Notes: a model not told the origin generated them from the letters alone. Shown: positions 10,075 through 60,266, counted from the stretch's first letter. The stretch: 64,000 bases of DNA from Candidatus Moraniibacteriota bacterium (GCA_043743535.1 JAYTWI010000020.1:10039-74038); one strand, 5' to 3'. Made by a program: numbers and translations.

Positions 10075-10112
10075 GTGTCTTGTTTTTTAATTATACAACA
10101 TCGCAACATTTT

Positions 10113-11216: not shown

Positions 11217-11217
11217 A

Positions 11218-34630: not shown

Positions 34631-35953
34631 TTAGATACTTCGCAAATCCCAGGATTCTATCGAGTTGCTTTTTAGAGGTGATAACGTCTCCCGACCAACG
34701 AACTGCCTCCTTACTATTTCCTCAAAAACAGCACATATTTTTTCCGCATCGACTGTAGGATCATATGTAGCAAATTTTTGTGGGTTATAGTTTGATTGGA
34801 ATGTCTCTAGAGCCATGGTCATCATTTCCTCTCGAGTCGGGGTAGTATAGCCGTCCTTGCCCAGGGCTCTCCAATATTTCCTGAGTGAGAGAACACAATC
34901 ACGCATATCTTTCATATATCCTACTCTCACATCTCTGTACATATTCGTTCTGGCACTGATGTCATCATTCTCAAAACCAGGCAACTTATTAATATTAATA
35001 CTTTTCACCGCAGCAGTATCAACAATCTCTCCCATCAACGTCAAGTTGGAAGAGTGCATGTGATAGTAAGTTAGTCCGTGAGAGATAAGAAGCGCCAGGT
35101 TCTTAATATGTTGCTTGAACATCGTGTCAAAGTACATTCTTTGGTGCTCTGGATTATCAATCTGTAGCTGGGGCGTATCTCTTTTTTCAAGTTTTGCTTC
35201 CTCGTTGAAAGCCCCATATACGGCTAAAAGCATATCTTTTTTATCTTTTCCATTTTCACTTTCTACATATTCTTCTATCCTTCGATTACTTCTCAGAAGC
35301 CTCACGCCCATGTATGGCCTATTTTGTTCACTAGCGTCTACGATGCCCCGTTCTCGTGCTTGATCCAAATTAAGCAGTTCCCCATTAAAACTTACCTTAT
35401 TTACCTGAGCAATAACCCAGTAGAGTTCTGATCGAATGCCAATAGCAGTCAGTCTTTTTGTTAATTCGACCAGATCATACATCCATTCAAAATCCTCCCT
35501 CGTTGCATGCCCCAAATTTATAGTACTTCCATATTCATTACGCGTTTTAAGGGAGGAGGGGCTGTTGTCCTTCATAACTTCACCCTTTACCATTCCGATA
35601 CCCTTGGTAGAAATATCAAAGTAATGATGCTCTATACCAGATTCGTCAGGGTATGAGGTGTGCCCAGGCGTGTCCACTGAACGCCAGTGTGGTGGCCTTC
35701 CTAAGACAACATTCTTCGTTCCGTCACTATTATCAATCATGTATAAAAAATCTTCGGCTTGTGCATTGCCATCAGCCTGAATTTTCTGATTTTTAAAAAC
35801 GATCTGATAGTCCTCGGGTTTCAAGGTTTCAAGCAGTACTGGGTGCGGATTAACGCCAGCAATAGTTCTTCCTCCGCGCTCCAGTCCCTCTGTTTTTCGC
35901 GGATCAGGAATGCGACTATAGCCTGCAAAATGTGGCTGCTCTAAAGTGCGCAT
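34631..35953 (-). CDS. hypothetical protein (440 aa), downstream of the giant repeat protein gene
   Basis: ORF in an AT-rich segment. No confident domain assignment. Confidence 0.5.
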   Translation of the reverse strand: MRTLEQPHFAGYSRIPDPRKTEGLERGGRTIAGVNPHPVLLETLKPEDYQIVFKNQKIQADGNAQAEDFLYMIDNSDGTKNVVLGRPPHWRSVDTPGHTSYPDESGIEHHYFDISTKGIGMVKGEVMKDNSPSSLKTRNEYGSTINLGHATREDFEWMYDLVELTKRLTAIGIRSELYWVIAQVNKVSFNGELLNLDQARERGIVDASEQNRPYMGVRLLRSNRRIEEYVESENGKDKKDMLLAVYGAFNEEAKLEKRDTPQLQIDNPEHQRMYFDTMFKQHIKNLALLISHGLTYYHMHSSNLTLMGEIVDTAAVKSININKLPGFENDDISARTNMYRDVRVGYMKDMRDCVLSLRKYWRALGKDGYTTPTREEMMTMALETFQSNYNPQKFATYDPTVDAEKICAVFEEIVRRQFVGRETLSPLKSNSIESWDLRSI

Positions 35954-36038
35954 AAAGTATAGTTAGTTTATACAACATTTTTGAATAAGGTCGGTACAAT
36001 CATGACACGATAGAATAATTACTTCTCTTTTGCCTACT

Positions 36039-39000
36039 TCACTTCAATACACCGACATCCTCTGGCGAGATAAAGAAGCAGTTTTGAGTGATACTATACC
36101 CATTAAAGTCAGTCTCCCTCTGGGGCAGACCAGTAACTCTATTTTTCGTAGCAAATTCAGGATTCCTTTTCAAAGTAGCCAGGAAATTAAAGACGGCGTT
36201 TCTATTGGAGGCACCCCCCCCACGGTGGTCATCAATAACGATAGCGACCTGGGCGTCTTTCTTATCAGCGACCTCCCTCACATACTGTACTATTTTTCGT
36301 ACAAAGTCAGAAACCTTGAGTTGATTGATGGTGTTTTCAATTGGATTTAAACCACGAATAACCATGAGTTTTTGACCACTGGCTGTGGTGGCCTCAATAA
36401 CGACGCAAGCCCCTGCCAATCGCTCTTCTTTTTCTTTGCCAGGATTTTGCTTGAAGACAAGCGCTGTAAAATTGGGAAATTTCTCGGCGATTGAACCATA
36501 CTTGGATGCCCAACAAGCATCCGCAATATGGCCAGAGAGCTCCATGAGCGTACCTCGACTCGGTAGGATTTCAAATGGTGTTTTCCCCTTTGTCTCAACA
36601 TTAGTAGCATCCCGCACGGCTTTAGCAAGTGTCGCCGTGTCTAAGAGATCATCAAACTTCTTGGCAACACTGGTAGTGGAAAAATATGTCCTAAGAGTCT
36701 CCTGGTTAGTAATATGATCAACAAACTCAATCACCTTAGAAACATTGGCCACCGAAATATTTGCTTCCGCGTCCTGCACATCAAATTCCATCCAGGAAGG
36801 ATTCTTGCGCAACGCTAAGGAAAAAACAGCTTCCTGAATAATAGGCCGACATCCTTTGATATCGAGGAGTATATCCATATTTGTCTGGAGATCCTGCACT
36901 GAGCGTATGTTCACTGTTTCTAGCCCAGCAACTTTCTCTTCCAAATTCTGTCTAGCTTTTTCATTGGTAAGTAATGGGAGTTTTGCTCGATAAGTATCAA
37001 TGGTCTGAGTAGTTATAACTCGCAACTTCTCTGCATACTGAGAAAAAACCTTGCTACCTTCTAAACTTTTTTGAGCTTCTCCAAGGCTTCGCAATAATGC
37101 TATGTATTTACTAACAACGTCTTCTGTCCACTGATGCTCTGTCACTGCCTTGGCATCCAAAGTCTGGATATCTACTCTCTTGGCCACAAATGCGGCGTCC
37201 GGCTTCATCGGTTCTATGGCCAATACTCTTTTAAGTTCCCCTATGGTCTTTTCACCAAAGCCAGCTTCATCAAAGCGAACATACTTCTTAAAATAGTCTA
37301 ACAGAATCGGATGAGCAAATACTCGTTCCTTGTCAATTACATCATTCCCCCAGTCCACTCGCTCCTTGCGTAATAATTGTAAAAATTTATTCACAAGCTC
37401 TTTACCTGTCGCTTTAAACCGAATCTGGGGGATTTCAACTTCTTCTGTTTCTGCGATGAAGCCTTCCTTAGATAGAACCTCTAAATCATCAATCCGGGTA
37501 GCAAAAGGAAATATAGCTTTACCAATCACTACTTTTTCTTCTTTACTTAATAAAAAATTTCTACTGACACTAGTAATTTTATTGATAAGATCTTTATCCC
37601 CGAACTTACACAGAGCTACCGTGCCTTCTACAACAGCCTCTCGGATCTCTGGCGATTTCAGGACTGTTTCTGGAAGAGAGAATACTTGAATAATTTCGAG
37701 GGCATCATAGAAATCATGAGATTTGATTCGTGCAAGCATACCTTCTCTGGCGGCTTTCTGGATCTCTGGCGATTTCAGGACTGTTTCTGGAAGAGAGATT
37801 GCTTTAATGATTGCACGGACTCTCGGGGTAAAATTATTACTACTACCTTTCCTGAGTTGAACTGCTATACTCTCTCCTGCGACTTCGAAAATGACAGCTT
37901 CAGAGAAATGAAAGGTTTTGGCGATGTTGAGAGCCTGACTAACATTGATATCATCAGAACTGAGTTGTGCCACCATGTTCTCTTTTGCTGCTTGTTGAAT
38001 TTCTGGTAATTTGAGGACCGCCTGGGGCGGAGAGAACTCATAAATAATAGAAATGGCACTATCTGCATTGCCAGTCTGGAGATATGTCATCATAGCCTCT
38101 CTTGCGAGTTTGCGGACGACGGCTTCAGAAAAAATATGGCACGTAGTGGCAATTCTTCTGGCAATGCAGATATTGCCATTTCTGAGTTGTGCAGCCACTC
38201 CTTCTCTTGCAGCTTGTTGAATTTCTGGTAATCCCATGGCTGTTTTTGGGAGAGAAAAAGTCTTAATAGTTGTGGGGACAGTGCCTATATTGCCATTTCT
38301 GAGTTGTGCCACCATGTTCTCTTTTGCAGCTTGTTGAATTTCTGGTAATCCGATAAAAGTTTTTGGGAGAGCGAATACGTCTATAATTTTAAGAGCTCTT
38401 GCAATAGAATTATTGTCTGTAAACTTGAGCTGTGTGGCCAGTCCTTCACTGGCAGCTTGATAAATGAGTGCTTCAGGAAGCTTGAAGGTCTCGATAAATC
38501 GAGGAACAAAATCAGCCTCATCCCCATAACTTTGGCCTTTGCTTAAAATATCAACAAGTCCCGCCCTAGCTATGGTTTGCACATTATTTGATTGAATCTG
38601 CCTGCCCGAAAGTGAAAAAGTTTCAACAAACGCCATTGCTGACCACCATTCACCCGCATTCAGTTTCTCAAGCATAGCCTGGCTTGCCAGAGATCGAAGT
38701 GGGGATGTGTCTGAAGATTTAAAAGCGCCCAATTTCTGCAAATCTTTAATCTGAAATAAAAATTCAGTAAGCGCCCCGTTACGAACAGCCATCATTTGCC
38801 TCATAATACACTCCGTACTCAACTTGTCGATATCCAAAAAACTCTTGTCGGTATATTGCAAAATATGAACAAGTGCGCGAAACGAAAGAGAAGTATTTTG
38901 AATGTGCTTTGCTGATTCCTGGGAGAGAGGGATAGTACCCGGGAGAATACTTCTCAGTGAGGAGTCGTCCTCAAATACTTCATCAATATTTTTTATGTTG

Positions 39001-40661
39001 ACAATGAAATCACTCACCAGATCAATCCCTGTGTGCTCTTTTTCCATCATCAACATTTGTGCCTCTTTGACAGCACTACCCTCACCATCCCACCGACCCA
39101 CTAAACCAGCCCACTGGTAAATTGCTTTCTGATTACGCGAACTGACTTCCTTTTTTGACTCCTCAAAAGCCCGGCTATAATCTCCATTGATTTCCGGTTG
39201 ACTTAAAAACTTTTGTGTTTTCGTTACTGCTAAAATATCAATCGACGATGCCCCTGCGGTCATAAGCTTGTGTGCCCGTTTGAGATCACCAAAAGGCACA
39301 TCATTAATAAAATCAACCCTAAATTCCCGAGTAACATCTGTTCTGTCTCCTGAGAAATGCCAGTGCAAGTCAAGTGCCATTTGCGCTAAGCTCTTATGAC
39401 GTTCGTTCTTTTGTTCTTGTTCCGACAATTCAGCTCGCAATAAACTACCGAGAAACTTTTTGAGATTTGCGCTTTGAATACGAGCATGTTCATACTGTTT
39501 AAAGGTCGTTTCCAGCTGTTTCAGTGCTTGAGTGTATTCACATTGTATGGATGAAAGCTGGGCCTCACGCTCTTCATCGGGTAAATTCCTTTTCTCTACA
39601 CGGGAAACTTCCCGCTGTTTTTTAGCATCCAGTCTATCTATTTCTCTCTGAGTATCTTCGCGGAATTTTTTGCTACGGCTTTCCAGTTCTGAATCAATAA
39701 ATTCCCCCATTTGTTCATCATCAGCACCTTCCGTGAGAAAGGTAATCTGCTTCTTCAATACATAAGCTCTCTCAGCGTATTTTGACACTCCTGATTTTCC
39801 CTCAAATCTTCCAATGTTGTGAAGGTCAACCCCGTTTATTTTCTGGCGCATCCCACGCAACTGCGCTTTTACTCCCTCTCCCAACTGTGCCCAAGCAATT
39901 GACTCCGCAAAACTCCCAATATAAGGAGAGCTTGGTCCTCTACTAGGATTAAACTTGGCCGCCTCAGCTACAATATCCGCCGCCCGAAGGATGACCTTAT
40001 GCTCTATTTCACCTTGAGATCCGTTTTTTGCCTCGAAATCCTTTCTTATTTTCTGATATAAATCTTGGAGAACGATATAATCATCATAATTCTGATCATT
40101 GAATCGGTTATTGAAAGTCTTCTGCTCCTGTCCTTTGGATTTATCTTTTTCAAGTGCTTTATATGCAATCCGAGCAATAGCATATTCCGGTGTTCCCTTC
40201 ATAAGCACTCGCCTCAAGTCTCGTTCGAGGCCTAATCGTACCTCATAAGGAGAAGCATAAATGATCTGAGGTTTTGTTTTATCATCACCACTATGACCAT
40301 AGTAGGTAGTATGATCTGGCTCTATTTTGGTAATTCTTCCGCTCAGTAACTGCCTATAGAAGTCTAGTCGCTTCTCAATATATTGATGCGCCTCTGGATT
40401 TATTTCCTCTACTATCCTTATTCCATCCTGAATGCCCAGAGTAGACAACTTATGAAAAACGAGTTTGAAATTGCTACTATCAAATGTTTCCTCATCTTCT
40501 ACATCAGAAAACATTCCCTTTTCAACACGATCGATTTGCGCAAAAAGAGTGGTGTATTCTGGGTCATCGTATACTTGCGCCACAAGCTCGGCTTGTGGAC
40601 TTTCCTCATGTAATTTTTTTATATCCGGAGAGGCTACACTCTCAAAATTTTTTAGTCGCAT
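36039..40661 (-). CDS. giant (1540 aa) intracellular tandem-repeat protein, function unknown
   Basis: No signal peptide or TM. Central array of 36-38-aa repeats (FSLPxTxxxLPEIQQAAxExxxAQLRxGN…). Unrecognised N- and C-terminal domains. Confidence 0.7.
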   Translation of the reverse strand: MRLKNFESVASPDIKKLHEESPQAELVAQVYDDPEYTTLFAQIDRVEKGMFSDVEDEETFDSSNFKLVFHKLSTLGIQDGIRIVEEINPEAHQYIEKRLDFYRQLLSGRITKIEPDHTTYYGHSGDDKTKPQIIYASPYEVRLGLERDLRRVLMKGTPEYAIARIAYKALEKDKSKGQEQKTFNNRFNDQNYDDYIVLQDLYQKIRKDFEAKNGSQGEIEHKVILRAADIVAEAAKFNPSRGPSSPYIGSFAESIAWAQLGEGVKAQLRGMRQKINGVDLHNIGRFEGKSGVSKYAERAYVLKKQITFLTEGADDEQMGEFIDSELESRSKKFREDTQREIDRLDAKKQREVSRVEKRNLPDEEREAQLSSIQCEYTQALKQLETTFKQYEHARIQSANLKKFLGSLLRAELSEQEQKNERHKSLAQMALDLHWHFSGDRTDVTREFRVDFINDVPFGDLKRAHKLMTAGASSIDILAVTKTQKFLSQPEINGDYSRAFEESKKEVSSRNQKAIYQWAGLVGRWDGEGSAVKEAQMLMMEKEHTGIDLVSDFIVNIKNIDEVFEDDSSLRSILPGTIPLSQESAKHIQNTSLSFRALVHILQYTDKSFLDIDKLSTECIMRQMMAVRNGALTEFLFQIKDLQKLGAFKSSDTSPLRSLASQAMLEKLNAGEWWSAMAFVETFSLSGRQIQSNNVQTIARAGLVDILSKGQSYGDEADFVPRFIETFKLPEALIYQAASEGLATQLKFTDNNSIARALKIIDVFALPKTFIGLPEIQQAAKENMVAQLRNGNIGTVPTTIKTFSLPKTAMGLPEIQQAAREGVAAQLRNGNICIARRIATTCHIFSEAVVRKLAREAMMTYLQTGNADSAISIIYEFSPPQAVLKLPEIQQAAKENMVAQLSSDDINVSQALNIAKTFHFSEAVIFEVAGESIAVQLRKGSSNNFTPRVRAIIKAISLPETVLKSPEIQKAAREGMLARIKSHDFYDALEIIQVFSLPETVLKSPEIREAVVEGTVALCKFGDKDLINKITSVSRNFLLSKEEKVVIGKAIFPFATRIDDLEVLSKEGFIAETEEVEIPQIRFKATGKELVNKFLQLLRKERVDWGNDVIDKERVFAHPILLDYFKKYVRFDEAGFGEKTIGELKRVLAIEPMKPDAAFVAKRVDIQTLDAKAVTEHQWTEDVVSKYIALLRSLGEAQKSLEGSKVFSQYAEKLRVITTQTIDTYRAKLPLLTNEKARQNLEEKVAGLETVNIRSVQDLQTNMDILLDIKGCRPIIQEAVFSLALRKNPSWMEFDVQDAEANISVANVSKVIEFVDHITNQETLRTYFSTTSVAKKFDDLLDTATLAKAVRDATNVETKGKTPFEILPSRGTLMELSGHIADACWASKYGSIAEKFPNFTALVFKQNPGKEKEERLAGACVVIEATTASGQKLMVIRGLNPIENTINQLKVSDFVRKIVQYVREVADKKDAQVAIVIDDHRGGGASNRNAVFNFLATLKRNPEFATKNRVTGLPQRETDFNGYSITQNCFFISPEDVGVLK
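37600..38500 (-). repeat. intragenic tandem DNA repeats (period about 111-114 bp) encoding the 36-38-aa repeat array
   Basis: Near-identical stretches recur, e.g. tctggcgatttcaggactgtttctggaagagag at about 37642 and 37768. gcagcttgttgaatttctggtaat occurs at least three times. Confidence 0.5.
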
Positions 40662-40854: not shown

Positions 40855-41301
40855 TTACCCTTCTTTTTGTTCTACTCTTATTTCTCGCTTCATTTCAGAA
40901 AGACTTTCGATCGTGACCTCTACTCTTTTTTCGGGCAAAATATTTACAATTCGTTCTGGCCATTCCACAATGACCACCCCCTCCGGGTCGGCGCACCATT
41001 CGGCAAACCCAAGTTCGCGAAAATCCTTTTCCTCTACTCGGTAGGCATCGGCATGATAAACGCGCTTGATCCCAGTAGCACTCGGCATAGACAATTCATA
41101 CTGCTTCATAATGACAAACGTCGGACTGATATACGGCCGCGTGGCACCGAAACCGGCGAGCAACCCCTGTGTAAAAGTCGTTTTGCCCGCCCCCAAATCA
41201 CCAGTGAGACAAAGAAGCACCCCAGGAGGCATTGTTTCTGCCATCTGCTGGCCGAAAGCCTTGGTCTCTTCTGCTGAATAGGTAGTTATTATCTGTTCCA
41301 T
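40855..41301 (-). CDS. tsaE: tRNA threonylcarbamoyladenosine biosynthesis protein TsaE
   Basis: P-loop LCLTGDLGAGKTTFTQGL. Size and context fit. Confidence 0.85.
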   Translation of the reverse strand: MEQIITTYSAEETKAFGQQMAETMPPGVLLCLTGDLGAGKTTFTQGLLAGFGATRPYISPTFVIMKQYELSMPSATGIKRVYHADAYRVEEKDFRELGFAEWCADPEGVVIVEWPERIVNILPEKRVEVTIESLSEMKREIRVEQKEG

Positions 41302-41471: not shown

Positions 41472-42614
41472 ATGTCTCTTTCTCCCTACCAGCAACTCGA
41501 AGAACTGCTCAAAAAGACCGTCGCTCCGCTCATTATTCTCCCCTCTTACCCTAGCCGTGACTCCTTGGCCACCGCCTTTGCGCTAGCCTTTTTCCTCAAA
41601 AGCATTGGTAAAGAGGCATTTGTTGCAGGCGAGAACATTCTCAAAGATAAAGAGTCCCTCGCTTTTCTGGGCGAGCCAGAGCACCTCTTGCCTACCATTA
41701 CTGGGGCCCGTGATTTCGTCCTTTCTTTCAATACCGAGCGCAACAAAATCACCAATGTGCGAACCGAAAATATAGCAGGGGAACTCCGTATCTACCTCAC
41801 ACCGGAGAACGGCGCCATCGATCCACGTGATTTTTCTTTTATCCCCGCCAAGTTCAAATATGATCTGGCAATTATTGTCGGTGCCTCTGACAAAGAACAT
41901 TTAGGGAAAATTTATGAAGACAATCCAGATATTTTTTATGAACTCCCGATCGTCAATATTGATAACCACTCCGACAACGAGTTGTATGGGCAGGTGAACC
42001 TGGTCGATATGACCGCCTCTTCTAATGCTGAAATGTTAGCAGAAATGTTGCAAAAAAGTGCCCTCGGTAAACTGGATGAAAAAACGAGCGAGAGCCTACT
42101 TACTGGCATCATCGCCGCTACCGAAAGTTTTCAGAAAAAAAACACCACTCCCAAGGCCTTGCAAATCGCCTCCCGCCTGATGGATGGTGGTGCCGATCAA
42201 CAAAAAATCATCCGCTCGCTCTATAAGACCCAACCACTGCATCTTCTGAAACTGTGGGGCCGGGTGATGGCTCAAGTGAAATGGAACGAGAGTCTGAAGC
42301 TGATCTGGACGCTGGTCAGTATCGAAGACCTGGTCCAGGCGCGGGCTCATGCAGACGATCTGCCACACGTCTTGGAGAAAATCCGCCACAATTATTCTTC
42401 CGGCCACTTCTATATGATTCTCTATCCAGAAAACAATATGGTGGTGCGTGGTCTGGTCAAAGCAGCCTCTGCTGAGAATCTCGCCCTCTTCGCAGCCAGG
42501 ATGGAGGGGGCACTTCATGACGATACCTTTGAATTTTCCCTCCCGGCCAATAGCCTCGATGAAGCCGAGAATATCATCATCGGCAAGATGCAAAAAACGT
42601 TCGTCGCTCCCTAG
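41472..42614 (+). CDS. DHH-DHHA1 family phosphoesterase-like protein (NrnA-like) with degenerate catalytic motifs
   Basis: Overall NrnA-like layout. DHH motif reads IDNHSDN, motif I reads PSRDS, GGGH reads SSGH. Confidence 0.55.
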   Translation: MSLSPYQQLEELLKKTVAPLIILPSYPSRDSLATAFALAFFLKSIGKEAFVAGENILKDKESLAFLGEPEHLLPTITGARDFVLSFNTERNKITNVRTENIAGELRIYLTPENGAIDPRDFSFIPAKFKYDLAIIVGASDKEHLGKIYEDNPDIFYELPIVNIDNHSDNELYGQVNLVDMTASSNAEMLAEMLQKSALGKLDEKTSESLLTGIIAATESFQKKNTTPKALQIASRLMDGGADQQKIIRSLYKTQPLHLLKLWGRVMAQVKWNESLKLIWTLVSIEDLVQARAHADDLPHVLEKIRHNYSSGHFYMILYPENNMVVRGLVKAASAENLALFAARMEGALHDDTFEFSLPANSLDEAENIIIGKMQKTFVAP

Positions 42615-42718: not shown

Positions 42719-45700
42719 ATGGTGCAGGTGATTCACAAAGATGTGGCCAATACAGAAAACCTCATCAAGGGCGAACAAACAAAAAAAGCGCTTGAAAAAA
42801 TGGAGGGGGAGTCGATTGAGCAAGCGGCTTCGCGACTGGCGGCTGGGAGTGGCCTCCCTTATATTGATCTTCATCTTTTCCCACTCGATCCAGAAAACGT
42901 GATGCTCATCCAAGAGAATGAGGCACGTGCCAACGGATTAACTTTATTTTACAAAAAGGATGTGGCTGTCCGTTTTGCGCTGCTCGACCCGAAGAATTCC
43001 CAGGCCAACGAATACATCACGAAAAAAGCCACTGACGAGGGCTGGCATATTGAAATCTATGTCACTTCCCTCCCCTCCCTGGAATACGCATGGCACAACT
43101 ACAAAAAACGCACTCTCATCGATAATCTCGACTTGGTGCGTGTTTCTTTGGGAGAACAGGACGTCGAGCGCTTCGAAAAGGACTTTGGCGAACTGATTGC
43201 CCTCAAAGAAAACCACAGTGTCTCTACCTCACGGGCGATGGAAATCATTCTGGCCGGCGCAGAAAAGTTGCGCACGAGCGACATCCACATCGAAGCGGAA
43301 GAAGAGCGAGTACGGTTACGTTACCGTATCGACGGCGTACTCCAGGATATCGGCTTTCTCCCCAAGGAGATGTACCAGCTCCTCACTTCACGCATCAAGA
43401 TGATCGGCAAGATGCGCATCAATATCCGAAACAAAGCTCAAGACGGCCATTTTTTCATTGAACTCGACGGCAAAAGGATCGATGTGCGTGTCTCAAGTAT
43501 TCCTGGAAAATTCGGAGAGAGTATTAATATGCGTCTTCTCTCCAGTAGCGACGTCATCGGCGAAGTTGATAACATCGGTCTTCGTGGTCTAGCCTACGAA
43601 GAAGTTTTGCGTCAAATTGAAAAATCAAGCGGTATGATCTTGAACACCGGCCCGACCGGTTCCGGTAAAACAACGACCCTCTACACACTCTTAAATCGCA
43701 TCAACAAGCCGGGCGTTAAAATCATCACCGTGGAGGATCCGATTGAATATTCTCTCCCCGGCATCGTCCAGACTGAAGTATCCAAAGATGAAACCTACAC
43801 CTTTGCCACCGCGCTACGGGCTATCGTAAGACAAGATCCTGATGTCGTCTTGATCGGAGAAATTCGTGATGAGGAGACCGCCGACATTGCCGTCAATGCC
43901 GCCCTGACCGGCCACCTCGTTTTTTCTACCCTTCATACCAATAGCGCCCCCGCCTCAATCCCTCGTCTCATTGAGCTTGGGGTCAAGCCATCGCTTATCG
44001 GTTCTGCTCTCAATGTCTTGATCGGCCAACGCCTGGTGCGCAAGATCTGTGACAAATGCAAAGTGCCCTATGACTTAGCCAACGAGACTGCTGATTCGAT
44101 CATCAAACTCATTACTATTATTTCGCCCAAAGCTAAGGTCAAACTCCCAACCAACGTCACCGCCCTATGGCAAGCACCCGGATGCGTTGCGTGCCATTTC
44201 ACTGGCTTCCGCGGGCGAATCGGTATTTTCGAAGTCTTAACGCTGACCCCAGAAATTACCGAACTCATCAACAATATGGCGACTGAGGAAGAGATTTTCA
44301 AAGCCGCACTCGAGAATGGTATGGTGACGATGACCCAAGACGGTATCTTGAAAGCCATAGACGGTATAACCACCCTCGACGAGGTATGGCGTGTGGCCGA
44401 CCAAACAGACATTCTAAAAAGTATTTATAGCCAACTCATGTCCAATGAACTCTCTCGAGCTTCCTTCATTTCCGAAACCCTCTACAACGAAACACGCAGT
44501 CATATCGATATCGTCTCCGCTTTCGGCCCCTATCTCCTCTCCATCAATCCCCAACTACGCCTTCCAACCGTCTTCGCAGCGGCTGTTGCTCTGCATGCCG
44601 GCGACATCCATATTGAGCCACAGGGAGAAAATTTTACCATCCGTTTCCGCATCGATGGTATTCTTCAGACCGTAGCTGCCTTTCCCCTCAATGAATACCC
44701 TAGCTTCTTGGGAGAAATCAAAGTTTTAGGCGGTTTGAAAACCAGCGAACGCGCCGGCATCACCGATGGTCGCTTTTCTATCACGCTCGAGAAGCCCCTA
44801 ACCGCAGGCAGCAACAAAATCGATATCCGTCTCTCCATCATTTTAGGCGGTTTCGGTGAAACGGTCGTTTTGCGATTACTCAATCAATCTGCCACTAAGC
44901 TAGATCTCGCCACTCTCGGCCTGCGAGCTCAAAATTTAGCCAAAATCATTACTGCCACCGAAAAACCAAACGGTCTCATCCTCAACACTGGACCGACCGG
45001 CTCTGGCAAGACAACAACTCTCTATGGTATTCTTGCTCGTCTCAATACCTCGGCCGTTAAAATTATCACTGTTGAAGATCCGATTGAATATCAGATGCCA
45101 GGCTTACTTCAGACCCAGGTCAATGAAAAAGAAGGCTACACTTTTGCTACCGCGCTCCGCTCACTCCTTCGTCAGAATCCTGACATCATGATGATTGGAG
45201 AAATTCGTGACGATGAAACCGCTCAGATTGCCGTCCAGGCAGGGAGCACTGGTCACCTTGTTCTCTCCACCCTCCATGCCAATTCTGCCGCTGGCACCGT
45301 TTCACGCTTACTCAAAATGGGCGTCTCAGGCGATGACCTCGCCAATGCCACCAACCTCATTTTTTCACAACGTCTGGTACGCAAAATCTGCCAAGTCTGT
45401 AAGGTCAAGGGGACTCCTTCCGTCGAAGAAGAATTGATAATCAAAAATGCACTCGCCACGCTTTCACCCAAGTCTGGCATCGTCATAACCAAAACTGACA
45501 CCATTTGGCATAGCGCGGGCTGTGAAAAATGTAGTGGCACCGGATACGCTGGACAAATTATTCTCTCCGAAACCATGCCTATGGATAATGAAATTCAATC
45601 ACTCATTGCGCGGAGCGCCCTGGTGAGTGAGATTGAGACTCAAGCGGTCGAGAACGGCATGATTACCCTCATACAAGATGGTATTCTCTGTGTATTGGAA

Positions 45701-45745
45701 GGCCAGACTACTCTCGACGAAGTGAAGCGTGTCACCAATCTTTAA
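42719..45745 (+). CDS. tandem-duplicated type II/IV secretion (PilB/GspE-family) ATPase fusion
   Basis: Two complete units. Each has an N2-like domain, Walker A LNTGPTGSGKTTTLY, IITVEDPIEY, Asp/His boxes and a tetracysteine motif (CDKCK…GCVAC and CQVCK…GCEKC). Confidence 0.85.
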   Translation: MVQVIHKDVANTENLIKGEQTKKALEKMEGESIEQAASRLAAGSGLPYIDLHLFPLDPENVMLIQENEARANGLTLFYKKDVAVRFALLDPKNSQANEYITKKATDEGWHIEIYVTSLPSLEYAWHNYKKRTLIDNLDLVRVSLGEQDVERFEKDFGELIALKENHSVSTSRAMEIILAGAEKLRTSDIHIEAEEERVRLRYRIDGVLQDIGFLPKEMYQLLTSRIKMIGKMRINIRNKAQDGHFFIELDGKRIDVRVSSIPGKFGESINMRLLSSSDVIGEVDNIGLRGLAYEEVLRQIEKSSGMILNTGPTGSGKTTTLYTLLNRINKPGVKIITVEDPIEYSLPGIVQTEVSKDETYTFATALRAIVRQDPDVVLIGEIRDEETADIAVNAALTGHLVFSTLHTNSAPASIPRLIELGVKPSLIGSALNVLIGQRLVRKICDKCKVPYDLANETADSIIKLITIISPKAKVKLPTNVTALWQAPGCVACHFTGFRGRIGIFEVLTLTPEITELINNMATEEEIFKAALENGMVTMTQDGILKAIDGITTLDEVWRVADQTDILKSIYSQLMSNELSRASFISETLYNETRSHIDIVSAFGPYLLSINPQLRLPTVFAAAVALHAGDIHIEPQGENFTIRFRIDGILQTVAAFPLNEYPSFLGEIKVLGGLKTSERAGITDGRFSITLEKPLTAGSNKIDIRLSIILGGFGETVVLRLLNQSATKLDLATLGLRAQNLAKIITATEKPNGLILNTGPTGSGKTTTLYGILARLNTSAVKIITVEDPIEYQMPGLLQTQVNEKEGYTFATALRSLLRQNPDIMMIGEIRDDETAQIAVQAGSTGHLVLSTLHANSAAGTVSRLLKMGVSGDDLANATNLIFSQRLVRKICQVCKVKGTPSVEEELIIKNALATLSPKSGIVITKTDTIWHSAGCEKCSGTGYAGQIILSETMPMDNEIQSLIARSALVSEIETQAVENGMITLIQDGILCVLEGQTTLDEVKRVTNL

Positions 45746-45771: not shown

Positions 45772-45805
45772 AAAAAAAATCACACCCATCAGGTGTGATT
45801 TTTTA
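45772..45805 (+). terminator. rho-independent terminator
   Basis: aaaaaaaATCACACCcatcaGGTGTGATtttttt. Confidence 0.7.
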
Positions 45806-46108
45806 CTCCAGAAACTGATTCATCTGTAGACAAATCCTTTGGCATAGGAGCGAAAGGAAAGGAAAAGTGTCGAGGTATAGCGCAGCTTGTGACCACCCTA
45901 CCCGGATCTTGGCAACGGTTCCCGTGATTGAGGACAAAAGATAGAGATCCCCAACTGTCTACAGGTGAAGCAGTCCCTGCAGGTCTGTTTTTTCGTTTTT
46001 TAAGCGAAATATGATGATAGCATAGCTTTATTTATTTGTCAAGAGGTGTTAGAATAGAAAAAAGAGTACTGATTTCTTGCCTTTTTAAAGCCAATTTCTA
46101 CACCAAAA

Positions 46109-47119
46109 ATGATTAATGCCACTACCGAAGTCCCGGAGGAACAAAGCCTCGATACGACACTCCGGCCACAAAATTTCACTGACTATATCGGCCAAGAAAA
46201 AATCAAACGTCATCTTGATATTTTTATTCAAGCGGCCAAAAAACGAAACGAAAATATCGACCACGTTTTGCTCTATGGTCCAGCTGGTTTAGGAAAGACC
46301 ACTCTGGCTCATATCATCGCCAAAGAAATGGGCGTCAACATCAAGGTCACCTCTGGCCCAGCCATTGAAAAAGTGGGTGACCTAGGCTCCATTCTCACCA
46401 ACCTGGAAGATGGTGATGTCTTGTTCATCGATGAAATTCACCGTTTGAACAAACTGATTGAAGAAGTATTATATCCAGCAATGGAAGACTACAAACTCGA
46501 TATCATCATCGGCAAAGGTCCGGCTGCTCGTACTATCCAGCTCGATCTGCCGCGTTTCACCTTGATCGGTGCTACCACACGCTTAGGGGCTCTTTCCAAT
46601 CCGCTCCGCAATCGCTTCGGTTCAACCCATCGGCTAGAATTTTATGCCCCAGAAGATATCGAAAAGATCGTTAAACGTTCGGCCAATATCCTCGACATCG
46701 GTCTCGACAGAGCTGGAGCCAAGGCCATTGCCACTTCCAGCCGCCAAACACCACGCGTAGCCAACCGTATCCTCAAACGTGTGCGTGACTATGCCTCGAT
46801 CAAAGACGCCACCACTATTAGTGAAGACCTCGCCAAAGAAGCTCTCACCCTCTACGAAATCGATCACCTCGGCCTAGAACCAACTGACCGACACATACTC
46901 GCCACCCTCATCCACAAATTCAGGGGCGGACCAGCCGGCATCCAAGCCCTCGCCGCCGTCACTGGTGAAGAAATTCAGACTATCGAAGACGTCTACGAAC
47001 CATACCTCATCCAGCTCGGATTTCTCGCCCGCACCCCCCGCGGCCGAGTGGTGACCGAAGCGGGTTTCACGCACCTCGGTCTCAAAATGCCCGCTGATCA
47101 TCAAGATAAATTATTGTAA
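46109..47119 (+). CDS. ruvB: Holliday junction ATP-dependent DNA helicase RuvB
   Basis: [22 protein letters not shown]…, plus sensor and arginine-finger regions typical of RuvB. Confidence 0.95.
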
Positions 47120-52701: not shown

Positions 52702-53361
52702 ATGCACTACCATCCCCTCATCAACTTCATTGTTGAACAAGGCGTGCCACTCCAGACGGTCACGCTCCTTTTAATGCTTCCTATTGTCGTCACTCTGGTT
52801 GCTTTTTTTCGCCAAATTGTCGGTATTAAGGCCTTCGGCATCTACACCCCCTCCATCATCACCTTTGCTCTCTTGGCCTTTGACCCCAATGGCCTCAAGT
52901 ACGGCATCGCCATTTTTGTCAGTGTCATCGTGGTGGGAATGATTTCGCGCCTCATTATGAAGCAATTCCGTTTGCTCTATCTGCCGCGTGTCGCCATGAC
53001 CGTCTCCATCATCTCGCTCTCCATCTTGTTGGTTCTGGTAGTCGGCGGGATGTTCCAACGCACGGGATTGGCGGCAGTCTCCATTTTTCCTCTCCTCATT
53101 ATGATTACGCTCGCGGAAAAATTCGTAGCTGCCCAAATCGAAAAAGGCAACCGCGTGGCTTTTATTCTCGCCGCGGAAACACTCATCATTTCCGTCGTCG
53201 GTTATTTTTTAGTCAGCTGGCATTTCCTCACGACACTCGTCCTGCAATTTCCTTGGCTTATTCTTTTTACCTTTCTCATCAATTTCTCGCTGGGGAAATG
53301 GACGGGCTTGCGTATCACCGAATACCTACGCTTCCGCAAAATTATTAGCCACCTTCAATAA
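52702..53361 (+). CDS. 7TM membrane protein (7TM_transglut-like, without transglutaminase domain)
   Basis: About 7 predicted TM helices. Immediately upstream of the RimK-like ATP-grasp gene. Confidence 0.55.
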   Translation: MHYHPLINFIVEQGVPLQTVTLLLMLPIVVTLVAFFRQIVGIKAFGIYTPSIITFALLAFDPNGLKYGIAIFVSVIVVGMISRLIMKQFRLLYLPRVAMTVSIISLSILLVLVVGGMFQRTGLAAVSIFPLLIMITLAEKFVAAQIEKGNRVAFILAAETLIISVVGYFLVSWHFLTTLVLQFPWLILFTFLINFSLGKWTGLRITEYLRFRKIISHLQ

Positions 53362-53405
53362 TCACCTTCCCTTTTTCTAATGTATTTTTTACCTTTCGTC
53401 TTCTG

Positions 53406-54812
53406 ATGTTTCATCGTATGTTCGATTTCTTCCAGAAAAGCAGCCGAATTTTGGGAATGAATGCCCGCAATCTTGACTATATCCGCCCCCATAACCGCAA
53501 GCGCGGGATGGAATTGGCCGACAACAAACTGCTGTGCAAACGCGCCCTCAAGAAAAACAACCTGGGTGTGCCAGACCTGATTGCAAAAATTAAAACGCAC
53601 GCGGAGTTGGATAGTTTTGATTGGACTCTGTTACCCAACAGCTTTGCTCTCAAGCCGAATCGTGGATTTGGCGGTGAAGGAATCCTTGTCGTCTATGGAC
53701 GGAAGAAAAATGGCGAACCGACGTGGATCAAAGCCGATGGTTCAACCATCACTATTGATGATTTAAAAACACACATCCGCAACATTCTCGATGGCTCATA
53801 TTCCCTAGCTAACACTCCAGATATCGCTTTCTTCGAAGAACGACTGAGACTTTTGAAACTCTTTAAACCCTATTCCTACAAAGGCATTCCCGACATCCGG
53901 GTCATCGTTTTCAATCAAGTACCCGTCATGGCCATGCTTCGCCTCCCTACTCGTGCTTCCGATGGCAAAGCCAACCTGCAGCAAGGCGCGGTCGGGGTCG
54001 GTATCGATCTCGCTACTGGCACCACCACGACGGCCATTTTAGGCAAGGGTCACCTCATCGAATACGCCCCCGGCACCCGCCTCGTGCTCTCGGGTATCAA
54101 GATTCCTTATTGGAAAGAAATTTTGCGGATGTCTGTCGAGGCACAGCGACTCTCAGGCCTTGGCTTCCTCGGAGCCGACATCTGTATCGATCGCGAACGT
54201 GGACCGGTCATCCTAGAACTCAACGCTCGCCCGGGCCTCTCCATCCAACTGGCTAACCTAGCCGGTCTGAAAGAACGTCTGCGCCGCGTGTCGGGATTAA
54301 AAATCAAAACAACCGAACGCGGGATGCGAGTGGGAATGAATCTTTTCGGAGGCGAGATCGAGGAAGAGATCGAGGAACTCTCCGGCAAGCGCGTCATTGG
54401 CAGCATCGAAAAAATCAAGCTCATCGGCAAAGAGGGAAAAGAAATTGAAGTGGAGGCCAAAATCGACACCGGCGCCGACTCCACCGCCATCGATAGCGAG
54501 CTAGCCAAAGAACTCGGTTTTATGGAGACACTTCGCCTCTTCGAAGAAAAAGTGGCTGGACGAGACGTAATGAAAGAAATGACCAAAGAAGAACGCGAAG
54601 TTTTATTTACCGATATTCCTGGACTCACTGACACTCGAGCAGTTAAATCCTCGCACGGTTATTCCTACCGCCCAGTCATCCTGATTGATCTTGTTATCGA
54701 TACCTTTCTCATTCCCGCTAAAGTTTCCGTTATTGATCGTTCACACCTCGAATATCCAGTGATTGTCGGGCGGAAGCATCTACGAAAATTTCTCATCGAC
54801 GTCAACAAATAG
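53406..54812 (+). CDS. RimK-like ATP-grasp (alpha-L-glutamate-ligase-related) fused to retropepsin-like DTGA aspartic peptidase (DUF785)
   Basis: N-terminus …RILGMNARNLDYIRPHN… (alpha-L-glutamate ligase-related N-terminus) and ATP-grasp core. C-terminus …EVEAKIDTGADSTAID… (DTGA active site). Confidence 0.75.
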   Translation: MFHRMFDFFQKSSRILGMNARNLDYIRPHNRKRGMELADNKLLCKRALKKNNLGVPDLIAKIKTHAELDSFDWTLLPNSFALKPNRGFGGEGILVVYGRKKNGEPTWIKADGSTITIDDLKTHIRNILDGSYSLANTPDIAFFEERLRLLKLFKPYSYKGIPDIRVIVFNQVPVMAMLRLPTRASDGKANLQQGAVGVGIDLATGTTTTAILGKGHLIEYAPGTRLVLSGIKIPYWKEILRMSVEAQRLSGLGFLGADICIDRERGPVILELNARPGLSIQLANLAGLKERLRRVSGLKIKTTERGMRVGMNLFGGEIEEEIEELSGKRVIGSIEKIKLIGKEGKEIEVEAKIDTGADSTAIDSELAKELGFMETLRLFEEKVAGRDVMKEMTKEEREVLFTDIPGLTDTRAVKSSHGYSYRPVILIDLVIDTFLIPAKVSVIDRSHLEYPVIVGRKHLRKFLIDVNK

Positions 54813-54846
54813 CCGTGCCCTTTTTTATTTTTTATCTCATCCTTTT

Positions 54847-55836
54847 ATGGAAATCCAAGAATACATTCAACGAATCAAACATGGCGGCTTCAAATCCTTT
54901 GTAAAAAAAGTTGTCGAGTTAAAAATCCCGGTAGAAGTGATTCACGGTAAAAATACCCTACTCAAACTGGAACACAGCAAAAAAATCATTTTCTGTTATA
55001 AAGGAAACCTGCCTGTGTATCGAAGAATGGGCAACCTAACAAAAAACAAACAAGTAACTAAAACAGTCCTCACCGCTTTCGGCATCGCCACCCCACGCGG
55101 AGTCATTGCTACCTCACTTGTTGAAGGTCTACGACTAACGAAGGAAGCGGCTCTGAAATATCCCCTTATCTGTAAACCAGTAGATGGCTCACTGGCCAAA
55201 GGTGTCACTTGGGATATTGCCTCCCCCCAAGAACTCCGAGCAGCGGTGGCACACGCCAAGAACGCCTACGGAAAACGACCTCGCTCCCAATTTCTCATCG
55301 AAGAAATGTTTGTGGCAGATGAATACCGAGTATTGGTTTTCAACGGAAAGGTGCTTTCATGTGTGCAAAAAATTTCAGCCGGGATTGCTGGCGATGGACA
55401 CTCAACCATCCAAGAGCTGATTGAAACCTTCAACAAAAAACGCACCCCCGGTTTTGAAATCCGCCTCGACAAGGTCGCCAAAGAAACACTCAAAAGGCAC
55501 CTCCTCACTCTCGAAACCATACTACCCAAAGGACGCTTCTTCAAACTGCGGAATAATCTCAATATGTCTGACGGGGGGCGAGCCATCGACTGTACCCAAA
55601 AAATGCACCCCTATTTCAAAGATGTGGTGGTACGTGCCACCGATGCCGTCGGGCTGACGTACGGCGGAATTGATTTTTTCGCGGACGACATCACCTCGCC
55701 CAAAAGTAAATACATCGTGCTCGAAATTAATCCCAATCCTTTCTACAATATGCACGAGAAACCACTTGTTGAGGGAAAAGGTGTCGATGTCTCAAGCATC
55801 ATTCTCAAAAGTATTTTCCCAAATCTAAAGGCCTAA
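54847..55836 (+). CDS. cyanophycin-synthetase-like ATP-grasp domain protein (no Mur-ligase domain)
   Basis: …LICKPVDGSLAKGV…EYRVLVFNGKV…AGIAGDGHSTIQELIE…NLNMSDGGRAIDCT…GIDFFADDITSP… resembles the CphA N-terminal ATP-grasp region. Confidence 0.7.
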   Translation: MEIQEYIQRIKHGGFKSFVKKVVELKIPVEVIHGKNTLLKLEHSKKIIFCYKGNLPVYRRMGNLTKNKQVTKTVLTAFGIATPRGVIATSLVEGLRLTKEAALKYPLICKPVDGSLAKGVTWDIASPQELRAAVAHAKNAYGKRPRSQFLIEEMFVADEYRVLVFNGKVLSCVQKISAGIAGDGHSTIQELIETFNKKRTPGFEIRLDKVAKETLKRHLLTLETILPKGRFFKLRNNLNMSDGGRAIDCTQKMHPYFKDVVVRATDAVGLTYGGIDFFADDITSPKSKYIVLEINPNPFYNMHEKPLVEGKGVDVSSIILKSIFPNLKA

Positions 55837-58855: not shown

Positions 58856-60004
58856 TTATTTACGAATAGGCATCATAATATAGAGGTATTCTTCTTTAGG
58901 ATGATTTTTTTCATCAAGCATCCGTAGTCCAGCCGGCGTACTACTGGTATTGGCCATAAAAAGAACTTTTTCGCCACCCAAAGCATTTATCCCCTCCAAA
59001 ACGTAGCGCGGATTGAAAATTATCACCAAATCACCCTCACCCGAAACAAAATCCACTGGTAAAACGGTCTTATTTTCCCCCACTTCTTGAGATTGCGAAA
59101 CAAAAGTACAGTTATTCTGTTCCTTACTGAAATGGAGCACTATTTCACCCGCACTATAGGAAGAAAAGGCTCCCCCAATCTTGATGGCCCTTTGGAGGGA
59201 TTCTCTTTCAAAGATAACTTGTGTGGTAAATGACTGTGGGATGATCTGCTTATAGTCTGGGTATTTTCCATTAATGATGCGAGAAACAATCTCTACCCCA
59301 TCTACCTCAAAAAAAAGCTGATTTTCCTCAAGCGCCATCTGCACCGCTATACTCTCCGGAGTTACCACTCGCATAATTTCACTTAAAACATTCCCTGGTA
59401 GTATTAAAGACTGATTATTTTTGAGAAATTCCTGATACTGTGACCCAGCCCCTGTAAAAGGGATAATCTCTTCCGCCAAGCGAAAACTGTCTGTGGCGGC
59501 AATATGTAGAGCCTGAGGAAAAAATGATATATGCACCCCTGTTAACTCTAGTCGTGCCTCATTCGTACTCACACAGAATAAAAGCCGAGAAAGGGCGTTT
59601 TTTAACTCCTGAGCAGGGAAGGAAAAAAAATATTCCTTTTTATACTGCGGAATAATAGGAAAATCCTTTCCATCCATCCCCTTGATTTTCATTTGGTACG
59701 TAGTACTTATTACTCGGAGATTCTGACTATCACTTTCCAACTCTAAAACATCACCACTAGGTAAATTATGAATAAAGTTACTGAGAATTTTTGCGGGAAC
59801 AGTTATTTTCCCTTCCTTTTCAATCTTTGCTCCAATAACCACGATAACACCAATTTCCAGATTGGTAGCAGAAAGCTTTAATCTCCCCTTTTCTGTTTCC
59901 AAAAGAAAGTTACTTAAAATTGGTAGGGTAGTTTGTTTCCCAACTACTCGTTCAAGATAAGAAAGGGCTTTGGCAAGATTTTCTTGAGTACAGATAATTT
60001 TCAT
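58856..60004 (-). CDS. dnaN: DNA polymerase III beta sliding clamp
   Basis: MKIICTQENLAKALSYLERVV…LPILSNFLLETEKGRLKLSATNLEIG…. Confidence 0.9.
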   Translation of the reverse strand: MKIICTQENLAKALSYLERVVGKQTTLPILSNFLLETEKGRLKLSATNLEIGVIVVIGAKIEKEGKITVPAKILSNFIHNLPSGDVLELESDSQNLRVISTTYQMKIKGMDGKDFPIIPQYKKEYFFSFPAQELKNALSRLLFCVSTNEARLELTGVHISFFPQALHIAATDSFRLAEEIIPFTGAGSQYQEFLKNNQSLILPGNVLSEIMRVVTPESIAVQMALEENQLFFEVDGVEIVSRIINGKYPDYKQIIPQSFTTQVIFERESLQRAIKIGGAFSSYSAGEIVLHFSKEQNNCTFVSQSQEVGENKTVLPVDFVSGEGDLVIIFNPRYVLEGINALGGEKVLFMANTSSTPAGLRMLDEKNHPKEEYLYIMMPIRK

Positions 60005-60266
60005 AGATTGTTTTGGTTAATTATTTAATGAAAGAGAAAGGGGATATTATTATAATTAGGAATGTGGATAACTGGATAACTGAGTGTTTTCTTTCTAATA
60101 GCGAACTTTTATCGGATGGGTGAGTAAAATACTTTAGGATAACTTTCATAATTTTGCGGACAAGTAAGGAGAAGTGAGATGGAGTGGATATTTATTCACT
60201 GCGGGACGATAGTTACACAGGAGCTATACGCTATTTTTCGGTGGTTATACAGGTTTATACAGATGT
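60005..60266. promoter_or_regulatory. dnaN-dnaA intergenic DnaA-box cluster (oriC candidate)
   Basis: Perfect box tgtggataa at 60063-60071. Near-matches ctggataac, taggataac, agtggatat, gtggttata. Confidence 0.55.

Follow-up and report, generated by a model that had tools for sequence, protein, structure and literature searches.

How would a secretion motor be built from subunits that each carry two ATPase cores, and what would it drive? Known PilB enzymes are homohexamers of chains of ~560 amino acids (aa), whereas the protein considered here is a single 1008-aa chain with two PilB/GspE-type cores in tandem. Its open reading frame (ORF) lies at 42719-45745 (+) in a 64,000-nucleotide (nt) stretch of DNA from a Candidatus Moraniibacteriota bacterium (GCA_043743535.1 JAYTWI010000020.1:10039-74038), the 64-kb window of this study. 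We propose a motor with a duplicated core, in which three chains would form a pseudo-hexamer that powers assembly of a type IV filament, with a DHH-like protein as its partner; we give this whole explanation a probability of about 0.5.

Two complete ATPase modules in one chain

The ORF is one unbroken reading frame with an ATG start, and the Pfam profile T2SSE (PF00437) matches two stretches of its product, with 732 bits summed against a cutoff of 24.9. A preliminary description of the locus had read it as one polypeptide holding two PilB/GspE-type ATPases; the uninterrupted frame and the extents of the two T2SSE modules (~166-562 and ~608-1008) agree with this, and the residue ranges then given for the halves were about right. 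Gene and domains are laid out as follows.

42719-45745 (+): tandem PilB/GspE-type ATPase gene, an intact ORF of 1008 aa plus stop with two T2SSE stretches
42719-43213 (+): N1 domain (T2SSE_N/MshEN-like), residues 1-165, one copy only per chain
43214-43573 (+): N2 domain of module 1 (N2D1), residues 166-285, with arginine fingers R257 and R272 aligned to R271 and R286 of Geobacter metallireducens PilB (GmPilB)
43574-44404 (+): C-terminal domain of module 1 (CTD1), residues 286-562, from conservation over 118 sequences and mapping to GmPilB and EpsE
44405-44539 (+): inter-module linker, residues 563-607 (45 aa), opening with a conserved amphipathic helix
44540-44914 (+): N2 domain of module 2 (N2D2), residues 608-732, with arginine fingers R704 and R719, plus R685
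44915-45742 (+): C-terminal domain of module 2 (CTD2), residues 733-1008, from conservation counts and the GmPilB/EpsE mapping

The preliminary description had also credited both halves with the full motif set, every part of which we located: Walker A (GPTGSGKTT, residues 311 and 758), IITVEDPIEY (335 and 782) and, in each half, Walker B, the His boxes and four cysteines. CTD1 contains Walker A K317, Asp-box E339/E343, catalytic E381, pore E386 and His-box H399/H406, as well as R441, C444/C447/C489/C492 and R500; the CTD2 set is K764, E786/E790, E828, E833, H846/H853, R888, C891/C894/C935/C938 and Q946. The halves are less alike than the 55-60% identity first estimated by eye: BLASTP aligns the modules at 45% identity over 401 aa (E = 8e-118), with 34.5% in the N2D and 50.4% in the CTD.

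Conservation was counted in an alignment of 118 full-length two-module homologs. The Walker A Lys, both Asp-box Glu, the catalytic Glu, both His-box His and the four Cys are present in both modules of 118/118. Functional residues of Geobacter PilB, identified by McCallum et al. (PMC5424180), were transferred through PDB alignments and the alignment of the two modules, with the following result.

GmPilB R271, R286 (arginine fingers): R257, R272 in module 1; R704, R719 in module 2
GmPilB E357 (Mg-coordinating): E343 in module 1; E790 in module 2
GmPilB E395 (catalytic): E381 in module 1; E828 in module 2
GmPilB E400 (pore loop): E386 in module 1; E833 in module 2
GmPilB T411, H413, H420: T397, H399, H406 in module 1; T844, H846, H853 in module 2
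GmPilB R455 (inter-chain; EpsE R394): R441 in module 1; R888 in module 2

Every mapped position is conserved in both modules; the fingers R257/R272 are invariant across the homologs, and E833, the pore-loop acid of module 2, is Glu in 109/118. Mean pairwise identity across homologs is 0.62 for N2D1, 0.68 for CTD1, 0.57 for N2D2, 0.62 for CTD2 and 0.43 for N1. The linker is the least conserved segment (0.38) despite near-invariant positions in its helix (Q562, L566, Y570, L573, M574 and L578), and AlphaFold2 (AF2) predicts helices at 563-576, 586-594 and 599-608 in this stretch. Judged from the alignment, both modules are under purifying selection, with neither decaying, and both keep the residues needed for ATP binding, hydrolysis and coupling to neighbouring subunits, so that both are apparently active.

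These features place the protein among known families. Walker A, the Asp box, an atypical Walker B with catalytic Glu and the His box mark it as a PilT/VirB11-like ATPase. A tetracysteine zinc domain, the CM domain (CxxC-Xn-CxxC), which defines the PilB/GspE clade (PMC5061722, PMC5424180), is present in both modules, as are the two N2D arginine fingers and the inter-chain Arg of that clade. We compared the modules with type IVa PilB structures from Geobacter metallireducens (5TSG/5TSH/6OLJ), Thermus (PilF/PilB, 5IT5/5OIU) and Myxococcus (3JC8). Each module shares with them the N2D+CTD fold (39-43% identity), the acidic pore loop, a pair of arginine fingers, the tetracysteine Zn domain and the nucleotide-site motifs, from Walker A and the Asp box to the atypical Walker B with its catalytic Glu and the His box; Foldseek gives TM scores of 0.88-0.93 to GmPilB and TtPilF chains. 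As in PilB, a single domain, probably an N1 (T2SSE_N-like), stands ahead of module 1. Unlike PilB, the tandem protein joins two cores by a conserved linker, module 2 lacks an N1, the gene lies outside a pil operon, and the modules singly fall under the TIGR02538 cutoff. GspE/EpsE (Vibrio 1P9R, 4KSR, 4PHT) belongs to the same clade and shares the motif set and CM zinc domain; R441 and R888 of the tandem protein correspond to EpsE R394, and R500 to EpsE R441. It differs from GspE/EpsE in having Gln at the R441 equivalent of module 2 and in that no GspL, GspF or secretin is encoded near the gene; CPR (candidate phyla radiation) cells are without an outer membrane (PMC6744442).

The N1 region, scanned alone, reaches 23.7 bits for Pfam MshEN against a cutoff of 23.1, a marginal match, and can be aligned to the N-terminal parts of PilB in the PDB. 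MshEN binds cyclic di-GMP through a tandem 24-residue motif, RLGxx(L/V/I)(L/V/I)xxG(L/V/I)(L/V/I)xxxxLxxxLxxQ (PMC5013675). Neither the 1008-aa protein nor any of 263 fused homologs has this motif (RLGxx...), and we dropped control by cyclic di-GMP through N1 because it is missing.

The tandem form is widespread. Searching 5.8 billion proteins, we found that 117/120 of the best matches listed are 1000-1049 aa long; the listed matches are 54-92% identical and come from NCBI, JGI, ENA and Logan assemblies. Among 1.84 billion representatives of 50%-identity clusters, searched exhaustively, ~13 fused representatives (978-1018 aa, 39-57% identity) ranked ahead of ordinary ~555-aa PilBs, the named ones at this clustering level coming from the Parcubacteria group and Candidatus Paceibacterota. 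Moranbacteria, Parcubacteria and Paceibacterota together yielded 263 distinct clusters of two-module proteins, and a single-cell amplified genome (locus L013) has the same unbroken gene. Such sequences have been public since the 2015 GW2011 Moranbacteria genomes, labelled plainly PilB/GspE, and current annotation calls them 'GspE/PulE family protein' or 'PilB' only. In the searchable full-text literature, which includes papers on CPR pili and PilB structures and leaves subscription-only papers outside its scope, we found no description of a tandem PilB/GspE ATPase core, nor of any natural tandem form in the PilT/VirB11-like family. The tandem PilB-type motor thus appears undescribed, as a divergent PilB/GspE-clade ATPase with tandem architecture and not as a new machine.

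Origin by internal duplication

The closest single-module PilBs occupy the genomic slot of the tandem gene: TsaE(-), a degenerate DHH/NrnA-like gene, PilB and ruvB. Locus L022 has DHH, PilB (565 aa) and RuvB in order, L023 has PolA(-), TsaE(-), DHH-like and PilB (559 aa) in order, and the single-module relatives P0137 and P0145 lie in a DHH-PilB(-RuvB) slot. By sequence, the nearest relatives of module 1 are the single-module P0137, P0145, P0148 and P0135 (42-50% identity, 553-601 aa). These slot-type single PilBs of Parcubacteria share the position with TsaE/PolA and RuvB nearby, but have one core and represent the unduplicated state. On this shared synteny and similarity, the tandem gene is a positional ortholog of the single-module PilB. 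Because single-module PilBs occupy the same slot, we conclude that the tandem form arose via internal duplication of the N2D+CTD core. Fusion of two neighbouring paralogs was considered and rejected: the preliminary description had suggested searching relatives for fused and split forms, and what relatives have at the locus is one single-module gene, not two adjacent ones.

A bootstrapped neighbour-joining tree of N2D+CTD modules groups the Moranbacteria module-2 sequences at 91%, with weak deeper nodes (16-31%); P0148 fell inside the module-2 clade at 25-31% bootstrap only, and this placement was not used. The linker-helix motif is common to the whole main family, P0121 and P0122 included, which points to one old event. 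In P0127, P0128 and P0141, by contrast, the two modules of a chain are sisters (bootstrap 100, 98 and 78) and the linkers resemble the proteins' own N1-N2D linkers, suggesting independent duplications or possibly homogenised copies; for P0127 and P0128 homogenisation would be by gene conversion. P0128 (L020 10001-12985) lies directly upstream of ruvB, but without a DHH-like gene. P0141 (L021 10001-13144), from a non-CPR genome, has a soluble PilC-like T2SSF domain fused to two T2SSE modules; it is surrounded by sulfatase, CBM9 and BatA genes and adjoins an ECF sigma/anti-sigma pair.

One protein goes further. P0004 (L001 10001-14383; 1460 aa) has three Walker A motifs and three PilB modules, of which module 1 is of type 1 and module 3 of type 2. 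Module 2 is chimeric, with a type-2 N2D and a type-1 CTD from ~residue 440 on, and a sliding-window analysis puts the crossover inside the CTD core, between ~residues 400 and 440. From this pattern we infer that P0004 arose when CTD2 and CTD1 of a two-module ancestor crossed over unequally. We had considered duplication of a CTD1-linker-N2D2 'packing unit', but the crossover lies within the CTD core and ordinary unequal recombination suffices.

Proposed arrangement of the modules in a ring

Three chains lying in one plane, the trimer-of-dimers suggested in the preliminary description, would close into a six-module ring in which module 1 and module 2 alternate. The ring contacts would be the ancestral N2D(n)-CTD(n+1) packing units, and the ring would bear three N1 anchoring domains only. 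That three chains form one six-site ring of this kind we consider slightly better than an even bet. We favour the in-plane arrangement because only two- and three-module chains were seen, and both numbers divide six; because freshly duplicated, identical modules would fit neighbouring positions without a new interface; because tandem forms arose repeatedly; because both modules keep the acidic pore loop; and because N1 is present once only.

PilB/PilT-type ATPases are known in C2 and C3 states (PMC5424180, PMC6858323), and our PDB matches include both. Alternating modules would fit the C3 'OCOCOC' conformation of PilT-type ATPases: the alternation of an (AB)3 ring would map exactly onto that state as seen in PilT-family members (PMC6858323), and since its opposite positions would differ in type, the C2 'CCOCCO' state of PilB would be only pseudo-symmetric. 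The three-module P0004 would give the same ring from two chains, and such an (ABC)2 ring would permit true C2 symmetry.

Several observations weigh against this arrangement. Tandem ASCE ATPases elsewhere (KaiC, p97, EccC) stack rings and show no in-ring alternation. The triple form is a single sequence, P0004 being known from one 77-kb JGI contig alone, although the divergence of its modules (N2D_2 against N2D_3, 66%) rules out a recent assembly error. Structure prediction, made with single-chain AF2 and judged by the predicted template modelling score (pTM) and the predicted local distance difference test (pLDDT), gave a full chain with confident modules, a mean pLDDT of 81.7 and a pTM of 0.55. 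The CTD1-linker-N2D2 fragment reached a pTM of 0.69, which against the full-chain value is compatible with cis packing but not decisive, and which is ambiguous since CTD1 makes up 62% of the fragment.

The chief alternative for the architecture is a stacked double ring, in which six chains would form two coaxial homohexamers, the first built of module 1 and its N1, the second of module 2, with the 45-aa linkers tying them together; one ring would meet the membrane platform, and the other would act as a second power stage or a regulator. Precedents are ready to hand in KaiC, p97/NSF, ClpB and EccC, stacking being usual for tandem ASCE ATPases. With its ATP site complete and none of the ancestral inter-subunit residues lost, each module could make a homo-ring of its own; the linker is long and partly structured; the full-chain pTM indicates no confident fixed packing between modules; and module 2 evolves somewhat faster and is often without the Arg that contacts adenine and ribose. 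Yet module 2 keeps the pore-loop acid E833, thought to engage PilC, which would be pointless in a buried ring. The existence of a three-module protein also speaks for a dimer of trimers over a less likely triple stack, and tandem forms arose repeatedly from an ancestor that formed homohexamers, for which an in-plane ring needs no new interface. On balance we regard stacking as unlikely. Engineered single-chain ClpX pseudo-hexamers, together with the natural tandem ATPases KaiC, p97/NSF and EccC, resemble the tandem protein in carrying several RecA/ASCE cores per chain in fixed order, with division of labour; where the natural examples stack their rings, the tandem PilB would, in the arrangement we prefer, lay its modules side by side.

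Slot, likely partner and the proposed link to filaments

The in-plane ring would power type IV filament assembly, either of a pilus or of a DNA-uptake pseudopilus. Its gene lies in the following surroundings.

40855-41301 (-): TsaE gene, the divergent neighbour that marks the slot (NCBIfam TIGR00150, 109 bits against a cutoff of 60)
41472-42614 (+): gene for a degenerate DHH/NrnA-like protein of 380 aa, 104 nt upstream of the ATPase gene on the same strand
45772-45804 (bidirectional): predicted intrinsic terminator with an A-run, a TCACACC-CATCA-GGTGTGA hairpin and a T-run, from sequence and fold
45812-45975 (-): structured small RNA (sRNA) of ~165 nt, convergent with the ATPase gene, between it and ruvB
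46014-46042 (-): putative sigma-70-type promoter of the sRNA, TTGACA-17-TATCAT with TG
46109-47119 (+): ruvB (Pfam RuvB_N, AAA_lid_4, RuvB_C), its own transcription unit

Flanking DHH-like and ruvB genes had been reported in the preliminary description and are indeed there, the former only weakly DHH-like; the TsaE gene on the minus strand and the sRNA gene before ruvB had been overlooked. The DHH-like product matches its Pfam family at E = 2e-4 and the NCBIfam NrnA profile at E = 3e-12 (46 bits against a cutoff of 350), and aligns with NrnA/DHH structures at E = 8.5e-14 to 2e-11. It lacks the catalytic motifs I, III and IV of DHH phosphoesterases and NrnA: motif I is SRD in place of DAD, motif III DNH in place of DHH and motif IV ATE in place of DTG, and all three changes are kept in orthologs. 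Its gene, mostly annotated 'hypothetical' at NCBI, stands directly upstream of the ATPase in 14/14 main-family fused loci and in 3 single-module relatives. The order TsaE(-), DHH-like(+), ATPase(+) holds in the same 14/14 fused loci, L018 and L019 among them, and the DHH-like/ATPase pairing is kept in L001, where ruvB lies elsewhere. By motif loss and gene order, the DHH-like protein is likely a pseudo-enzyme partner of slot-type PilB, and it could be a cytoplasmic partner or regulator of the ring.

Genes usually found downstream are ruvB, bPH_2, yebC and ruvC, and upstream polA, fpg and holA. A functional operon with ruvB was rejected: the ATPase gene has its own terminator, the two genes are separated by the antisense sRNA, and other genomes have 2-4 kb of unrelated genes inserted there. 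Because of this terminator and these inserted genes, the linkage with ruvB is one of gene order and not of an operon.

As regards filaments, the evidence is divided. Type IV pilus genes are general in CPR genomes (PMC6744442), and the single-module locus L005 has the same DHH-like gene upstream and an N_methyl pilin-like gene right downstream. Other findings count against the filament part of our proposal. The 64-kb window has no gene for a pilin and no pilC, pilM, pilN, pilO, pilD or pilT; the absence of an adjacent pilC, pilM, pilin or secretin gene, remarked on earlier, thus extends to the window ORFs scanned against Pfam, among which there is no PilC, PilM or secretin, and no prepilin motif occurs anywhere in the window. 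Nor are there pilus genes within 10 kb of the ATPase gene in 15 fused loci in Patescibacteria-type contexts. Each module alone falls below the equivalog cutoffs, as listed here.

PilB (TIGR02538): module 1, 441.9 bits; module 2, 401.6 bits; cutoff 675.65
GspE (TIGR02533): module 1, 446 bits; module 2, 415 bits; cutoff 630.25
ComGA (NF041000): module 1, 233 bits; module 2, 240 bits; cutoff 300

The full protein scores 833 bits for TIGR02538, above the cutoff only through summing of the two modules, and annotators should bear in mind that tandem proteins pass PilB/GspE equivalog thresholds in this way alone. By motifs, Zn domain and fold it is a member of the PilT/VirB11-like superfamily and the PilB/GspE clade, and it is no PilB equivalog. 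A Patescibacteria locus (L015) has an operon-type PilB, ~39% identical to the tandem protein, beside PilC and pilins; because Patescibacteria also have this operon-type PilB, the tandem protein may be a second paralog with another role.

Taken to its end, this line of thought holds that the slot-type PilB lineage, single or tandem and always with the DHH-like pseudo-enzyme, is no pilus motor and serves DNA uptake or translocation or another nucleic-acid task, leaving the pilus to the operon-type PilB. Besides that separate PilB, the missed PilB and GspE thresholds and the absence of pilus genes from the 10 kb on either side of the fused gene in the Patescibacteria-type loci surveyed, the neighbourhood itself favours it: DNA repair and recombination genes (polA, tsaE, ruvB, yebC, ruvC) are conserved around the gene down to ~39-46% identity. 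But the ATPase gene has its own terminator, with unrelated genes often between it and ruvB; a tetracysteine CM domain together with an acidic pore loop is characteristic of ATPases that assemble filaments (PMC5061722, PMC5424180); and in L005 a pilin-like gene immediately follows a slot-type PilB. We judge a role apart from pili improbable and prefer the filament motor.

The sRNA downstream of the ATPase gene is a finding of its own. The terminator at 45772-45804 closes both the ATPase gene and this antisense transcript. The predicted structure has a long closing stem (CUGUAGAC...GUCUACAG) and three internal hairpins, and its covariance model matches 14 related Moranbacteria loci, L013 twice. 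In the alignment, 94.5% of cells are paired, against about 40% in slid controls; compensatory changes occur in 33/49 pairs, and 0/500 shuffles were as good. The promoter -35 hexamer is invariant in 7 loci. The sRNA adjoins the ATPase gene in L001 and adjoins ruvB where the two genes are apart. No Rfam family reached its gathering threshold; STnc370 alone matched with an E value under 1, and was dismissed as chance (25 bits against a gathering score of 54). By covariation, 45812-45975 is a conserved structured sRNA outside Rfam families.

Other parts of the window are noted in passing. Between polA and tsaE, which in L002, L004, L007 and L018 are only ~85-500 nt apart, an insertion comprises an AAA_14/DUF4143 gene and two ORFs of 1540 aa and 440 aa with no Pfam/NCBIfam match (34631-40661, -). 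Downstream of ruvC, a 7TM_transglut gene and two or three ATP-grasp genes (52702-55836, +; RimK / ATPgrasp_ST, one with a RimB-like protease domain) form a cluster syntenic across Moranbacteria loci. A restriction-modification/defence cluster of lower GC (0.38-0.39) at 7338-12321 (-) encodes an HATPase_c_3 protein, a C-5 cytosine methylase, a GmrSD_N-HNH endonuclease and an EcoRI-type adenine methylase. A reverse-transcriptase (RVT_1) ORF at 20751-21842 (-) overlaps the end of a Mur ligase gene and could be a component of a retron, a group II intron or a diversity-generating retroelement. Finally, dnaN and dnaA lie at 58856-61679 (-) and GC skew flips sign at ~60 kb, so that the region around 60 kb is probably the replication origin.

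Differences between the modules and their meaning

The asymmetric sites suggested in the preliminary description find weak support: the modules do differ consistently, but in small ways. N1 precedes module 1 only, and module 2 has the linker instead. Where GmPilB has R257, module 1 carries H244 and module 2 carries R685. At the position of EpsE R441, which touches the adenine and ribose of the nucleotide (PMC5061722), module 1 has R500 (Arg in 118/118) and module 2 has Q946 (Gln in 75/118, Arg in 42/118). We had considered R500 against Q946 a decisive asymmetry, but Gln also turns up in the first module of several Paceibacterota fusions, and in a few single PilBs too, which weakens this view. 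Because of its occurrence in module 1 of those fusions, the Arg-to-Gln change is no clean signature of inactivity.

This bears on the possibility that one module is a dead, regulatory pseudo-ATPase, with active and inactive sites alternating as in F1 alpha3-beta3. The loss of the nucleotide-contacting Arg in 75/118 Moranbacteria-clade second modules, Q946 included, would suit it, and the unrelated tandem P0141 does have a degenerate first module (Walker A K to T, Asp box E to Q). However, the degenerate residues in one half that the preliminary description had thought might be found are not there: catalytic residues are invariant in both modules of the 118 homologs, inter-subunit residues are kept in both, and the same Arg-to-Gln change is tolerated in presumably active enzymes, namely Paceibacterota first modules and a few single PilBs. 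We reject a pseudo-ATPase module for Moranbacteria-type homologs as very improbable; it does occur in P0141.

That two adjacent genes were joined by a missed stop or frameshift, placed near 44.4 kb when first raised, is excluded for practical purposes on comparative grounds, since the ~1005-aa architecture recurs at 39-92% identity and the same length in hundreds of independent assemblies and one single-cell genome, the linker has conserved residues, and none of the relatives has two adjacent single-module genes.

A stronger form of our proposal is that CPR bacteria of the Moranbacteria/Paceibacterota lineages drive a type IV filament with an obligate hetero-ring, in effect a natural C3 'OCOCOC' machine: three covalent dimers with strict alternation of two diverged sites, three N1 domains, division of labour and a DHH-fold pseudo-enzyme as a new cytoplasmic partner, the three-module form being its C2 counterpart. 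We hold this joint reading to be possible but doubtful. If it is true, the PilB motor cycle would not need six equivalent subunits, and it could be taken apart one site at a time with single-chain constructs that nature has already made.

Pili and pseudopili are assembled by PilB-type ATPases. Whether ATP turnover passes round their hexamer by a C2 or a C3 scheme is still debated, on the strength of crystal and cryo-EM snapshots of homohexamers. In natural covalent dimers, and one covalent trimer, the order of subunits would be set and the site classes would be separately mutable, much as engineered single-chain ClpX hexamers allowed site-by-site mutation for AAA+ unfoldases. The novelty lies in a single-chain construct of natural origin that touches on a mechanistic question still in dispute, and in an unrecognised conserved partner. 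As for the organisms themselves, the slot-type PilB of this CPR lineage is a distinct one, always accompanied by a degenerate DHH/NrnA-like protein and encoded apart from pilus genes. CPR bacteria live as episymbionts and scavenge DNA, a lifestyle in which type IV pili are believed to be central, and this makes an unusual motor and its partner relevant to how they live.

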